From NCBI RefSeq assembly GCF_053078305.1, contig NZ_CP166879.1: DNA of 64,000 nt; one strand, written 5' to 3'. Of the stretch, positions 43,401 to 49,400 are shown piece by piece; positions within the stretch are counted from its first letter, which is position 1; every line of letters begins with the position of its first letter. Made by a program: the position numbers.

Positions 43401-46400
43401 CACATTACCGATGCGCATAGCCCGTAAATACCGCACCTATTTCGGGAAAGGTGCAGATCGCGAGACGTTACGCAAAACCAACCGCGATTTACGCTCGGCA
43501 TTTACTGCCCTGCAACAGGGCAAACGGCTGAACGTCCGGCAGCAGTCAGCGATGCGTGATTTACCGTCCTGGTCTGAACTGATTGATGCCATTCGTGACG
43601 GTGTTGAGTGGTACAACAACCGGCCGCACGATGAATTACCGGTGAAGCCGAACGGCAAGCATTACAGCCCGGCGGAGTTCAGAAAAAAACGCCTGGCGGA
43701 AGAGGACACGGAAATTGAATGGCTGTCCGATGTTGAGCTGCGGGATATGTTCCGGCCGATGGTGGAACGCCCTGTAAGACGCTGTGAAATACGCTGGCTG
43801 AATAATATTTACTACGCGCCCGAGCTGCGTGACGAGCATGGTCGTAAGGTGCTTATCAGCTATGACATTCATGATGCCGAACGAATTACCGTACGTCGCC
43901 TGGATGGCAGCGTGATTTGCGAGGCGGTATGGGACGGTAATAAACGCGAAGCCTTCCCGGTTAGTGCGGAATACTACAAACAGCAGCAACGCCTTAAAGG
44001 CATGCGTAAACGCGCAGAGGAAAAAATCCGTGATGCCGAGGATGAGGTTGTCAACGTGCTGGAGCACAAGCCGCAGGAGCCCTGGCTGGAAAACATCTAT
44101 CGCCCGGTAGGTAATACGGTGGCCGTTCAGCAACCGGTCGCTGACGATGAACCTGATGAAGAATACGAGCGTAATTTCCAGCGGGGATTGCAGTTGCTGG
44201 AAGCGAAATTAAAAGAAAATGACCCGCTGGCCTGAAATAAAAAAATAACCCGAGCGGCGACTCAGGTTATTTGATTAAACAAGGTATCAAATGAGAGGTT
44301 AATAATATGACTGATATTAACGATGTAATCAAGACCATTGATGAACTTATTGATGGCGGCGTACTGACGCAGTATGCCATCGCCAGAGAGGCGGGAATTT
44401 CCGACGGCACATTATCGGCTTTCCGTAAGGGAAAATATAAAGGCGATAACGCTGCTGTGGCTGCTTCCCTGCGTTCCTGGTATGAGAACTGGAATAAACA
44501 AAGCGCACTGCCGGAACCGCCGCAGTTTGTGGAAACGCAGACAGTCCAGGAGCTGCGCGCACTGTTTCAGGCGGTTCGTCTGATGGGCTGTATTAACGTT
44601 ATTGTGGGCGTACCGGGTGTGGGTAAAACGGCCACTGCCCGTAATTACTGCCAGGAGCAACCAAACACCTGGATGATCACCCTGTCACCCGCGCACTCCA
44701 GCGTCACGGAGTGTCTGCTGGAGCTGGCCGATGCGCTGGGGATTGATTACACCCGCGCGAACAAAGGGGCATTATCCCGCGCCATCCGCCGTCGCCTGAT
44801 GGGAACGCGTGGACTGGTGATTGTGGATGAGGCGGATCATCTTGGTATTGACGGTCTGGAGCAACTCCGGGCAATTCAGGACGCCACGGGGATCGGGATG
44901 GTGCTTATTGGTAACCCGCGCGGATTGTTTAAAGGTGGACGCCGCGCCTTTGATGATTTATCGCGCCTGTTCAGCCGTCTTGCCCGTACAAAACAACTTC
45001 GCAAGGCCAAAAAGGCGGATGTGCTGGCCATTGCCAGGGCATGGGGTATCAGTGGTGAGGCCGAGCTGGCCGTCATGCAGGCTATCGCTGAAAAGCCCGG
45101 TGCGTTACGTGTTCTGACACATACGCTTAACCAGGCGTGGCTCACAGCCAGCGGTGAAGGCGCGGCGCTGACAGAAAAACATATTAATGCGGCCTTTAAA
45201 GAGGTTTATACCAACCCTGAATTACTCTCACAGGTGTGATTATGGCGGTATTTAATATTCCTGATATTTACGGACGCTTTTACCTGGTTAATTTCGATAA
45301 CGTGAAGGTGATTTCACTGGCCGAAAATAAAGAATGTGGCGATTTACTTTTTGAATTTAATGACCGCACACGAATGGTGATATCTGCCGGACTTGATCGC
45401 GAAGGTGCGACAGACGTTTACAGCGGAATATGCCGTTCTGTTGGTGCGAAACAAGTCAGCTAAATGAGGTGTTATATGAATATGCAATCCTGCGGTAACA
45501 AAATGAATTTATTCGACTCCCTGAACAGCGCGCGCCGTCTGACCGAACTTGCCGGTGCGGTACTGGAACGCAGTAAGCGCTATCCGCAACGTTTTGCACT
45601 GAAAACCACGCCGCCGGTAGGCAACGTGCAGGGAACCGGTGAAATTGAAATCACCATACAGACCAACGGCCTGCGCCGCCGTGTGAAGGCCACCCGCATC
45701 AGCGGCTGCACGGTTTACTGGGAGGTGTGAGGTGAAAAAAAATCTCATTGCATGGGCGTGGTCGAGTGGTCTTATTGAGTTTGGTTACGTCCTGCCGGAA
45801 GGTGCATTGCCGATAGTTGCCGGAAAGCCTGTCACGGTACGGCATGTGATTGAGGTTATGGCGCGTCATGGACGTGATGAACAGGAGCAGTTACTGGTTC
45901 CGGGGATACCGGAAGCGGTGACGGAGGAAGAAGCCTTTAATGCCATGATTCGGTTCTGCCGTGAGGTCAGACGCCGGGTCAGTTATCCAAACAGAACGAG
46001 GACCAGAGGATGAGTAAAGTCGTACGCATTATTTTCGAATACAAGGAGCACGTTATCCATAAAAACGCTGATGGAACAGTGCGCATGGGGGTAAGTCTGG
46101 ACATACGTTCAACCGGGATAAAGCAGAAAGGTGATGGACCCGCCATGATTTTTGGAGTGGTTATGCTCGCGGAAAGCAGAGACTTTGCTGAACTTGTGGC
46201 AATGAAAGCCAGTGCGCTCATGAAAGATATGAGCATGCGTTCCGGGGTTATTAAAGGTAATGAATTTAATCAGCAGGGGTAATTCCATGAGCAAAGTACG
46301 CGTTATTTTTGAATTTAAGCATGTTTCGCATGACGAAAAACCGGCAGGTAATGACTGTGTTGAAGTGCATGAAAAGATTGGTGTGGATGTAAAAACAGAA

Positions 46401-49400
46401 CGTGATACGAATAACAGGCCGACGTCACTCTGTGACGTTTATGCAAGTATTCTCCAGTATCACAGTCCTGAAATTATTCAGTTTCTCTCAGCGGAATTTC
46501 AGGCATCTGTACAGGCTTTTGGGGCGGATGCCATCATTAAACGCCACCGCGTGCATAAAGCATCAGGCACACTGCAATAAGGAAAAACAAAATGGCTAAA
46601 CGTGTTACAAAATTAAAGGCCGCAGCCGAGGCTGCACCGCAGACCCGCGAAGAAGTCAGCCGCGATATCCGTACCCTGGGCGATATTCAGCGAGAGGCGC
46701 TACGGCTGGAAACGGCGATGAATGATGAAGTGGCAGAAATCACCGCCCGTTATACGCCGCAGATTGAAAACCTTAAAAAAGAAATCAAAGTGCTTTTTAA
46801 GGGGATTCAGGACTGGTGCAAAACCAACCGCGATGAGCTGACGAACGGCGGCAAAACCAAAACAGTCAATCTGACCACCGGCACGGTGTCATGGCGGCTG
46901 GGAACGCCATCATGCAGCGTCAGCCGTGATGTGGAAGGTGTGATTGAAATGCTGCGCCGTATGGGGCTTGAGCGATTCATCCGCACGAAAGAGGAAGTGA
47001 ACAAGGAAGCGGTCCTGGCGGAGCCGGATGCGGTGAAAGGGATTGCCGGTATTAAGGTAAATAAAGGCGCTGAAAGTTTTTATGTCGAGCCTTTTGAACA
47101 GGACGCCGGACTGAATAAATAACACCACATTAAATCTTTAAATATCACATCGTTTTAATTATGGCGCTCGCGTCAGGGGACTGCCTGCGCCTGTAAACTG
47201 AAAATAAGGAACAGGAAATATGGCATATTTTTATTTCAAATTAGACCGTGTGCAGACAAATAAATATTTCACCAAATATCAACAGACTGTTTTACCGCTA
47301 CGCAACAGTATTCTTCGGGCATTACTGAAAAATACAGGCGCTGCCGGATTGCGCTTAAAGCCGTTCGCCATGGACAGAATCAGTGAGTTTTATTTTTCCG
47401 GTGCTCTGCCTGCGGGCTGGCGTAAGCGCGATGATGTGGCTTTTATCGGGGACGGACCGTGCTTTATTGCCAGACCTGATGAGTTATGCCCTGAAGGACC
47501 GGCGATTGCCGCAATGGTTGAAGCCGCTGAACGCGATTTAAGAAAGCGTCCTGATTTCCTTGTCTGGCTCTGTGAAAAGCTGGGGGTAATGAGAATCCCC
47601 TCCATGTTTAACATGGACTCCTGGTGGACCCCGTCACTCTCCCGTGATGCCCTGTGCGTGGTGTTTAAAGTAGGCGCTTATGGCAGGGAAATAAACGGGT
47701 GTATTCCTGAAGAATGCCAGGAAATTAAACATTCTGAATATGTGGCGCTGACGGAGGAATAATTCATGATTGATGCAAAAGTGCTTGAAGGGGTTAAAAA
47801 CTGGCTGAGTATTTACGGGCGTCTGACCTGCGGAGTTCTGGCTGAAAAAATGAATATGCCGCCATCCTCGATGGTTTATTTTCTGCGTGATGCGGTTGAT
47901 GCCGGGGTGCTGACGGAATGTAACGGTTTTTATGATATTCCGCGTCCCCGCCCGGTGCAGCCGGTTCGTCGCAAATGCAGCCAGGAGTCTGCGGCTGATG
48001 ATGTTCAGTGGTGCAGCTTCAGAAAATCCCTGCCGTGGATTGAGGGGCATGATATTCCGTCGATGGCGTGGGAATTTGCTCAGGGCATACTGACCTGTGA
48101 AACCGTTTATGTGGTGGCTGAAGTTGATGAGCAGGCCATGAAAGAAGGTGTACCCCAGTTTGTGATGGCGTATATCGACATACGCCTGGGTGTCATTATC
48201 TGCGGTTTAAGCGGCTGGAATATCACCGGACATGTTCTGCGTTACCTGATTGTTGACCGGACAGCGGCACCGGCCGCGATTTCTGCGGAGGTGGCGTAAT
48301 GTTCTTTAAAACATCGAACCCTGCCGCGCTGGCCGCGTGGCAAAAATATCAGCAGGACTGCCAGACGGTAAAAGATGAGGCGAAACGCCTTGAGGCCGTG
48401 CTGAATGTTGCGTGCCGGTCGGTATTTGAATTCAGTATCAGTGGTTTTTGTTTTAAGGGACTGCGTTTTACGGAGGACAAATATCCTTTTCATCGTGATT
48501 TATGGCGAAAACCAACTGCGTCGAATGGCTGGAGCTGCACACCGCGCACATCACGTATTCCCAAAGCCCTGCGCGTTGCCTCTGACGAACTTAACAGTCT
48601 GTGGCGTGAATATTCGCCCGTCACGTATGCCAGAACCGATGCACTGTTGTTCTGGCTGGGCATTGATTTCTCGGCAATCCTGTTTGGCCCTGTGGAGTGG
48701 TTCTGCGTTGACGATGTGATTTACCTTCAGTGCGGCGTAAAACCCGCAAAACAGAAAATGACCGAAATTCTGTCTGATGAGTTTTATGCTGCTGAAAAGC
48801 GAGTCAGGGGGTGATGCATGATGATATTACAACCCATGGGGAGAAAAGGCAGTGCACCCGCTCATGTTCGCGCATGGACACCTGAAGAAGATGCGCTGCT
48901 GATTGCGCTTTATCCATCCACCCCGGTTAAGGATATTGCTGTCAGGGTAAAAAGAAGTTTCTGGGGTGTACATCACCGGATTGTTTTATTACGCGGCACT
49001 TACCCGGAGTTGCTCAAATGCAAACGTCCAAGATTTAAACATGATGAAGATAAATTTATCCGAAAAAATGCCAGAACGATGACCGGTAAGCAAATAGGAG
49101 AATATCTGGGGCGAGACCGGGATTCTGTCCACAATCGGGCGCGATATATTGGCGTAAGCATGAAAAAATACGGAGAATTGCTGCCCTTCACCCGTATATC
49201 TGATGATGATGTTCGTCTTATTCGTGAATTACGGGATGCTGAATCACCACGACGTCTTACCTTCCGGGAAATAGGCGAGAAATTTGAATTATCCGAGAGT
49301 ACGGTAAATTTTATTTATCACCATCGCCGGACTGCCGAAGATGTTGTATTACGGGAGTTAATGCCATGATAACGACATTATTTGTTGAATCAGACGAGCC

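Follow-up and report, generated by a model that had tools for sequence, protein, structure and literature searches.

Two small genes with similar N-termini upstream of gam in an Sp18-type Mu-like prophage of Escherichia coli: a possible old tandem duplication

Genomic organization of the early operon

The 64,000-nucleotide window analyzed here (contig NZ_CP166879.1 of RefSeq assembly GCF_053078305.1) carries an Sp18-type Mu-like prophage of Escherichia coli. Two adjacent small genes, ORF1 (46010 to 46282; 90 aa, beginning with MSKVVRIIFEYKEHV) and ORF2 (46287 to 46580; 97 aa, beginning with MSKVRVIFEFKHVS), were located on the plus strand within its early operon. They were separated by 4 nt, and ORF2 lay immediately 5' of gam, confirming the arrangement described in a sequence-only reading of the window. 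The stop codon of ORF2 was followed after 11 nt by the gam homologue (46592 to 47122, plus strand), whose product, a DNA-end-binding protection protein, matched phrog_491 (E = 3e-70) and was 57% identical to Mu Gam. Upstream, genes for transposase A, ATPase B, a 75-aa protein, and a Kil-like protein (42148 to 45730, plus strand) preceded a 93-aa gene on the same strand (45732 to 46013; phrog_1518). The 3' end of the 93-aa gene forms a conserved upstream junction, at which its stop codon overlaps the start codon of ORF1 (ATGA). This gene is variably present, and the "host nuclease inhibitor" label of phrog_1518 had no basis in Pfam, a search of which was empty.

A scan of 45200 to 47300 identified no plus-strand promoter or terminator site, including between ORF1 and ORF2; the possibility that they are independently expressed morons was therefore rejected. 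Co-transcription as small early-operon genes is the best explanation for their expression. An Rfam scan of 44000 to 48500 returned nothing relevant.

In the RefSeq record of Sakai Sp18, the same two coding sequences carry the tags ECs_4950 and ECs_4951 and are described as hypothetical proteins. No mention of ECs4950 or ECs4951 was found in the literature, where work on Mu early genes and anti-defence supplied background only. ORF1 matched phrog_4107 over its full length (E = 1e-61, positions 1 to 90 of 90), as did ORF2 phrog_2230 (E = 1e-40). Both families are of "unknown function" and already catalogued as hypothetical prophage proteins. Neither protein had a match in Pfam, nothing was obtained for them from NCBIfam or PADLOC, and PDB sequences queried with the profiles of both families gave noise only.

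Sequence similarity between ORF1 and ORF2

The two proteins started with a similar segment predicted to form a beta-strand, with the consensus MSKV(V)R(I/V)IFE(Y/F)K, encoded by codons 1 to 17 of ORF1 (46010 to 46060, plus strand) and codons 1 to 15 of ORF2 (46287 to 46331, plus strand). BLASTP aligned residues 1 to 17 with 12 identities (E = 9e-4 in this single comparison) and detected no similarity past residue 17. Identity was 71% within this segment and about 8% after it (5 identities in 57 aligned codons), so that about 80% of each protein was dissimilar at the pairwise level. The proteins had been described as diverging in their C-terminal halves, which was inaccurate, as recognizable identity stopped at about residue 17. 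The 5' similarity went unreported in an ungapped DNA repeat search, for which 3-nt indels are probably responsible.

Profile comparisons confirmed that the similar starts were non-random and extended the resemblance. In hmmsearch against 2,494 ORF segments, the ORF2 profile detected all ORF1 alleles at E-values of 8e-5 to 1e-3, with matches spanning HMM positions 1 to 76–83, and the next match was noise (E = 2.5). The ORF1 profile, searched against the same segments, detected a Salmonella ORF2 homologue (E = 0.004), and the reciprocal matches covered approximately 65 to 80 residues. Alignment of the ORF1 profile with a broadened ORF2 profile by hhalign gave a probability of 93% over 72 columns, and another run gave 87.7% over 66 columns. 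After removal of the N-terminus, the alignment remained in register with a score of 19.9 versus 10.3 ± 2.3 for shuffled sequences (2 of 200 shuffles reached 19.9), and the truncated families were each other's top non-self match in the correct register, but the HMM E-values (0.13 to 0.34) were not significant alone. A motif consisting of GP and a hydrophobic helix was also common to both proteins. The sequence-only reading had named similarity confined to the first few residues as grounds for its refutation; this was the picture in the pairwise alignment, and at the profile level similarity extended only weakly beyond them. In a database-wide search of 1.84 billion representatives with the ORF2 profile, ORF1 was not returned at E ≤ 0.001. 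In PHROGs, whose clustering is based on remote homology, phrog_4107 and phrog_2230 are separate families, and the link between them suggested by these profiles is absent.

Predicted structures

The AlphaFold2 model of ORF2 (pLDDT 84) contained a long beta-hairpin (residues 4–21 and 24–39) and two helices (48–58 and 60–77). The ORF1 model was poor (pLDDT 53), with strands at residues 4–18, 24–38, and 51–54 and a helix at 57–73. The element order, a long hairpin followed by one or two helices, was alike in both models, with the short strand 51–54 as an addition in ORF1. ORF1 and ORF2 probably have a common fold; since the ORF1 model was poor, this assignment draws on secondary-structure order only. 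The ORF1 model was too poor for a fold search, and Foldseek was run with the ORF2 model, which yielded no match at E < 0.07 in PDB or BFVD; its top PDB matches were only the long hairpins of pore-forming toxins.

Family distribution and genomic contexts

All ORF1 homologues found were from E. coli and shared at least 68% identity. The ORF2 family (phrog_2230) is small and comprises members from Mu-like prophages of E. coli, Salmonella, and Serratia; the relatives in Salmonella and Serratia showed 26 to 30% identity, aligned over 81 to 94 of 97 profile positions. The N-terminal strand was kept throughout the ORF2 family, the Salmonella and Serratia members included (VIF.FE), and the N-terminus of ORF1 was nearer to that of its co-resident E. 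coli ORF2 than to those of the Salmonella or Serratia homologues. A tblastn search of 50,697 phage records matched just two, both of Stx phages with an inserted Mu-like element; Mu, D108, and SfMu contained neither ORF1 nor ORF2.

In all five non-E. coli contexts examined (four in Salmonella and one in Serratia), the ORF2 family was present as a single copy, directly 5' of Gam or of a DUF3164 protein replacing Gam. ORF1 occupies the junction held elsewhere by this single-copy gene. At two Salmonella loci (L081 and L083), the ORF2 homologue and the homologue of the 93-aa gene shared the very 4-nt overlap that ORF1 has with the 93-aa gene in the window. Further, in the E. coli CI5 prophage, which lacks ORF1, the 50 nt leading into ORF2 were those that lead into ORF1 here. 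A zinc-ribbon ORF, Lar-like by eye, was present in the early block of Serratia.

Mu gp7 (E6; 87 aa, phrog_10252), an uncharacterized early protein encoded between kil and gam, resembles ORF1 and ORF2 in size, in genomic block, and in its start, M-[AS]-K-V and then alternating hydrophobic residues. Its match to phrog_2230 (E = 0.009) covered profile positions 1 to 80. Its membership in the family is unproven, as the profile-profile scores against both families (13.9 and 12.2) were at the background of shuffled sequences (11 ± 2) and BLASTP was negative. Unlike ORF2, the gp7 gene is not next to gam in Mu.

Selection, allelic variation, and recombination

Gene-wide dN/dS values of ORF1 (0.30) and ORF2 (0.35) indicate purifying selection, although they were 3 to 4 times those of Gam (0.09), B, kil, and the 93-aa gene. 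Between ORF1 and ORF2, 35 of 45 nt were identical in the shared N-terminal codons, with a pN of 0.12 and a pS of 0.69, which indicates selection on the peptide together with an old split. In the remaining codons, pS was 0.68, much the same as in the shared codons, and both values were near saturation. Among alleles, the N-terminal segment of ORF1 had a dN/dS of 0.09, and amino acids encoded by the first 10 codons of ORF2 were invariant across 23 alleles, only one of these codons having a second codon. The hairpin region varied more in amino acid sequence than the genes did on average (dN/dS of 0.46 in ORF1 codons 13–26 and 0.59 in ORF2 codons 25–40). Windows with dN/dS above 1 coincided with dS values of 0.03 to 0.06 and were artifacts of near-zero dS.

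An island of low synonymous divergence (46232 to 46319, plus strand) extended from the 3' part of ORF1 into the 5' part of ORF2, with dS values of 0.057 and 0.031 versus 0.14 to 0.65 elsewhere, and probably marks a junction at which allele modules recombined. The allele classes of ORF1 and ORF2 reassorted, and a natural in-frame fusion of the two genes (P0036) was found. Exactly one ORF1 and one ORF2 were present in 225 of 231 carrier genomes; a few genomes lacked ORF1, and the survey of copy number, suggested as a check by the earlier reading, revealed no expansion of either gene among the 231.

Origin of the gene pair

Common ancestry of ORF1 and ORF2 is plausible in view of the reciprocal profile matches, the shared element order, the tandem position, and the single-copy state in the five outgroup contexts. 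To this extent, the earlier proposal of a duplication stood. Its "recent" date was unsupported, because of the low identity past residue 17 and the apparently saturated synonymous sites. On balance, we lean toward an old tandem duplication after which the copies diverged asymmetrically; ORF1 would be the extra copy, and both genes would encode small accessory factors. ORF2 would then represent a narrow pre-gam family in E. coli, the gene of which is single-copy beside the end-protection gene in the Salmonella and Serratia contexts. The duplication would have occurred in the E. coli lineage, and ORF1 would have retained its junction to the 93-aa gene upstream as well as the N-terminal strand, while the rest of it diverged almost beyond recognition, with the small two-layer fold probably retained. 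In this fold, as modeled, C-terminal helices would pack against a long, amphipathic beta-hairpin. The shared strand would have been maintained by purifying selection on the protein rather than by recent DNA copying.

A chimeric origin is a possible but less probable alternative. In this case, only the first approximately 15 codons would be shared, through partial duplication, unequal crossover of two Mu-like genomes, or 5' gene conversion, and residues 18 to 90 of ORF1 would derive from an unrelated gene or from a very distant one of another phage lineage. The abrupt fall in identity after residue 17 and the non-significant E-values of the truncated profiles are in line with such an origin. 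The ORF1 N-terminus is far closer to the E. coli ORF2 type than to the Salmonella and Serratia types, for which a later 5' exchange is no worse an explanation than an old duplication. The region is also highly mosaic, as seen in the reassorting allele classes and the low-dS island at the ORF1/ORF2 junction, and the fusion P0036 demonstrates that such joints form. However, pS in the shared codons was as high as elsewhere, which argues against recent copying, and recent gene conversion as the source of the 5' similarity was down-weighted for this reason. Moreover, the truncated families still found each other first in the right register, and the element order and the GP-helix motif agreed between the two proteins.

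The sequence-only reading had likened the pair to a recently duplicated counter-defence family diversifying under arms-race selection beside gam, a view that we regard as improbable. The genes do lie between kil and gam in a stretch of small early genes whose content varies, together with the variable 93-aa gene and, in Serratia, the Lar-like ORF. Their elevated dN/dS relative to neighboring genes and the variable hairpin region point in the same direction, and accessory genes of Mu-like phages, restricted to specific regions, are proposed to be adaptive (PMC4378225). However, none of the tests performed here supported an arms race: the duplication was not recent, gene-wide dN/dS was below 1 and the windows exceeding this value were artifactual, and the pair was fixed in nearly all carriers without expansions. 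In addition, neither protein resembled a known anti-defence, defence, or other characterized protein or fold, and the ORF2 family was tied to its position rather than to Gam, for which DUF3164 stands in at some loci. The idea draws on genomic context only.

Many E. coli genes begin with "MSK...", and the tripeptide is uninformative. Chance or translational-start convergence, with the rest of the roughly 15-residue match coincidental, is nevertheless very improbable, given that the match runs on through V-R-(I/V)-I-F-E-(Y/F)-K-H-V, that BLASTP and HMM E-values were significant with a clean gap to noise, that the strand was conserved across the ORF2 family, and that unrelated neighboring ORFs gave no similar-scoring N-terminal matches.

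Possible roles and relation to known systems

Under the old-duplication reading, each protein may be a soluble early accessory factor binding a cellular or phage partner. The conserved hydrophobic core and N-terminal strand could act as a scaffold or oligomerization edge, and the divergent surfaces could confer different specificities. More speculatively, and with little likelihood, the strictly conserved N-terminal strand could be an interaction edge, either for an ORF1:ORF2 heteromer or for docking on a common partner, such as the end-protection protein encoded downstream (Gam or DUF3164), a host nuclease, or a sensor of host defence. The E. coli lineage would in that case have converted one early accessory factor into a module with two subunits or two specificities, active in DNA-end processing or immunity. 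The ORF1 strand is closer to that of the co-resident ORF2 than to its Salmonella counterpart, as such co-evolution would allow.

If the duplication is real, the pair would provide a small, clean case of transposable phages enlarging their early accessory repertoire, in which a conserved pre-gam gene was duplicated in place, one copy keeping the family sequence and the other just the fold core and one strand. The ORF1/ORF2 pair is a modest curiosity with no bearing on a long-standing open question. The uncharacterized ORF2 family, encoded beside a DNA-end-protection gene, is a reasonable candidate for host-takeover or anti-defence screens.

The small early accessory and host-takeover genes of transposable phages, such as Mu kil and those in the accessory regions of Pseudomonas Mu-like phages (PMC4378225), are likewise short early-operon ORFs 3' of B. 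Gene content of that region varies between related phages, as it does at ORF1/ORF2. No sequence or structural relationship was found between ORF1 or ORF2 and any characterized gene product of this kind, and Mu Gam, a Ku-like DNA-end-binding protein and the operon neighbor of ORF2, shares no homology with either. In every context examined, ORF2-family genes adjoined an end-protection gene, encoding either Gam or DUF3164. Since DUF3164 can replace Gam, any functional coupling of ORF2 would be to the position or pathway rather than to the Gam protein itself.

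Genomic context of ORF1 and ORF2

The early operon of the Mu-like prophage spanned positions 42148-49369 of the window and encoded, on the plus strand, transposase A (42148-44235), ATPase B (44307-45239), a 75-aa protein (45236-45463), a Kil-like protein (45464-45730), a 93-aa protein (phrog_1518; 45732-46013), ORF1 (46010-46282), ORF2 (46287-46580), and a homologue of Mu Gam (46592-47122; phrog_491, E = 3e-70; 57% identical to Mu Gam). ORF1 and ORF2 were both present where the sequence-only reading had placed them, with the starts that it quoted. Both were already catalogued with unknown function, as ECs_4950 and ECs_4951 in Escherichia coli O157:H7 Sakai and as phrog_4107 and phrog_2230. 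The region containing the pair matched prophage Sp18 of strain Sakai, and many further STEC genomes, at 99% identity.

The genes were tightly packed, with a 4-nt overlap (ATGA) between the 93-aa gene and ORF1, a 4-nt gap between ORF1 and ORF2, and an 11-nt gap between ORF2 and gam. No promoter-like or terminator-like site was found on the plus strand between 45200 and 47300. ORF1 and ORF2 thus belong to the early transcript as ordinary members and are not self-contained morons. Mu Gam binds DNA ends and thereby shields them from exonucleases, so that the term RecBCD inhibitor, previously applied to gam, was only loosely correct.

For the "host nuclease inhibitor" label given to the 93-aa gene (phrog_1518; Sakai ECs_4949), searches of Pfam and NCBIfam gave no support. 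In many E. coli prophages (loci L002, L013, L016, and L039), this gene was reduced by deletion to its final 50-70 nt, and the remnant formed the junction before ORF1, or before ORF2 in strain CI5. The kil-gam block varied further in its cassettes: some Sp18-type prophages (locus L013, 3013-3432, and others like it in E. coli) had an extra 139-aa gene, resembling Mu gp8/E7 by eye, between the 75-aa gene and kil. The only phage-database records with the ORF1 and ORF2 genes were LC727881.1 and LC727895.1, Stx2c and Stx1a converting phages annotated with an inserted Mu-like phage, a Mu-like element having transposed into Stx prophages.

Similarity between ORF1 and ORF2

BLASTP aligned only residues 1-17 of ORF1 with 1-15 of ORF2 (12/17 identical, E = 9e-4), and in a profile-guided alignment 5 of the 57 aligned codons in the rest of the pair were identical. 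Divergence therefore begins after about one fifth of the length, not in the C-terminal halves as had been proposed. A profile search of the ORF segments found no third copy within the window.

Profile comparisons extended the similarity. With hhalign, the ORF1 family alignment (21 E. coli sequences) matched the close ORF2 family over 33 columns (probability 86%). The ORF2 profile was run exhaustively, by HMM search, against 1.84 billion representatives, which yielded five more distant relatives in Salmonella enterica and Serratia, 26-30% identical; against the ORF2 alignment that included them the match lengthened to 66 columns (87.7%), or to 72 columns (93%) when match states were taken from the first sequence. 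The longer alignment took in the second strand of the hairpin, a "GP" turn common to both families, and the first helix. Cutting the first 17 columns from both profiles left the register unchanged; the score was 19.9, compared with 10.3 ± 2.3 for column-shuffled profiles, 2 of 200 shuffles matching it. Both profiles were searched against 2,494 stop-to-stop ORF segments taken from the window and from nine related loci. That of ORF2 found every ORF1 allele (E = 8e-5 to 1e-3; HMM position 1 to 76-83), its next match being at E = 2.5, and that of ORF1 matched a Salmonella ORF2 homologue (E = 0.004). With the truncated profiles, each family was the top non-self match of the other, but weakly (E = 0.13-0.34). 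The AlphaFold2 model of ORF2 was confident (pLDDT 84; strands 4-21 and 24-39, helices 48-58 and 60-77), and that of ORF1 was poor (pLDDT 53; strands 4-18 and 24-38, short strand 51-54, helix 57-73).

Together, the profile matches and models gave moderate evidence for homology over the whole domain. This evidence is much weaker than the sequence-only reading assumed, but the similarity exceeds the first few residues. The probable remote relationship between phrog_4107 and phrog_2230 is new. Mu gp7/E6, which is superficially similar and matches phrog_2230 at E = 0.009, failed the profile-profile tests, and its membership is therefore not claimed.

Probable duplication history

The ORF2 family occurred in Mu-like prophages of E. 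coli, Salmonella, and Serratia, while a word-seeded search, which could miss distant members, found relatives of ORF1 (at least 68% identical) in E. coli only. Five contexts outside E. coli were examined, four from Salmonella and one from Serratia; in each, the ORF2 homologue was single-copy, with 8-10 nt separating it from a downstream Gam or, in Gam's place, a DUF3164 protein. In two of the Salmonella contexts there was a 4-nt overlap between it and the 93-aa-gene homologue, which is the junction held by ORF1 in the window. Two sequences, from E. coli CI5 and from a viral contig, lacked ORF1; in them the approximately 50 nt before ORF2, the 3' end of the 93-aa gene, were those before ORF1 in the window. 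This geometry is what tandem duplication of an ancestral gene in place predicts: the upstream copy would take over the old junction and the downstream copy would remain adjoining gam. We infer that the gene was duplicated in this way in the E. coli lineage, an inference also new here; the finding is real but modest, a probable lineage-specific tandem duplication among phage accessory genes.

The duplication was not recent, contrary to what had been claimed, since pS was 0.69 in the shared N-terminal codons and 0.68 in the rest. With pN at 0.12 versus 0.59, the N-terminal strand therefore looks to have been kept by selection on the peptide rather than by recent copying, these being noisy estimates from 15 codons. 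The ORF1 strand was closer to the co-resident E. coli ORF2 strand than to the Salmonella and Serratia versions, a poorer fit with an old duplication. Possible accounts are that the gene duplicated within the E. coli lineage and ORF1 then diverged very fast, that a 5' exchange took place later, or that the two strands co-evolved. The same closeness favors ORF1 being a chimera or partial copy, which we consider rather unlikely.

Population variation and selection

The locus was carried by 231 of 5,426 complete E. coli genomes, at 271-272 places and at most four per genome, and both genes occurred together in 225 of the 231 carriers. Gene-wide dN/dS was 0.30 for ORF1 (21 distinct alleles) and 0.35 for ORF2 (23 distinct alleles); these values mark both as real coding genes on which purifying selection is relaxed. 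The corresponding values were 0.09 for Gam, 0.05-0.10 for B, 0.09 for Kil, 0.14 for the 93-aa gene, 0.22 for the 75-aa gene, and 0.4 for a 180-aa gene downstream of gam. Amino-acid variation was higher than the gene-wide mean in the hairpin region (dN/dS 0.46-0.59; codons 13-26 of ORF1 and 25-40 of ORF2) and near the C-terminus of ORF2 (0.77). Values above 1 were confined to ORF1 codons 75-90 and ORF2 codons 1-11, and were rejected as positive selection because they are artefacts of coinciding very low dS. None of these population data carried the signature of an arms-race expansion.

These two codon ranges form a low-dS island (46232-46319), where dS was 0.03-0.06 versus 0.14-0.65 in the flanks. 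Allele classes of ORF1 and ORF2 occurred in all combinations, reassorting freely among prophages (a 99% identical ORF1 with a 59% identical ORF2, and 81% with 94%); the island is therefore probably a recombination joint, and looks like a conserved linker for module exchange. In one E. coli protein of 67 aa (P0036), residues 1-49 of ORF1 were naturally fused in frame to the final 18 residues of ORF2, the joint lying at an "FG" common to both (TTTTGG microhomology). Both genes also had several alleles with frameshifts or truncations (P0038-P0041, P0053, P0061, and P0062).

Possible function

Searches with ORF1 and ORF2 gave no significant or informative match in Pfam, NCBIfam, PADLOC, or PDB sequences, nor did Foldseek with the ORF2 model against PDB and BFVD. 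The positions conserved in the ORF2 family (V6, I7, F8, F10, Y52, A53, I55, L56, and I63, plus E70 and G79) were mostly hydrophobic and located in the first strand and the helices, and many matching ORF1 positions in the hhalign register were hydrophobic too. This fits a common scaffold with different surfaces. As a guess with weak support, each protein might be a soluble early accessory factor binding a host or phage partner, and the N-terminal strand might serve the fold or an oligomer edge.

Because DUF3164 can replace Gam, the context links the ORF2 family to the position upstream of an end-protection gene, not to Gam itself. In Salmonella Mu-like prophages (L081, L082, L087, and L088), the place of Gam immediately downstream of the ORF2 homologue was taken by a 212-aa DUF3164 protein, and in sister prophages (L083 and L086) it was held by Gam, as if the end-protection gene had been replaced by a non-homologous one. 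In addition, a Serratia Mu-like prophage (L085, 3645-4004) contained, between kil and the ORF2 homologue, an unannotated ORF for a zinc-ribbon peptide (CPFCG...CxxCG) resembling, by eye only, Lar-type restriction-alleviation proteins. Mu gp6, at an analogous place, is also Cys-rich and zinc-ribbon-like.
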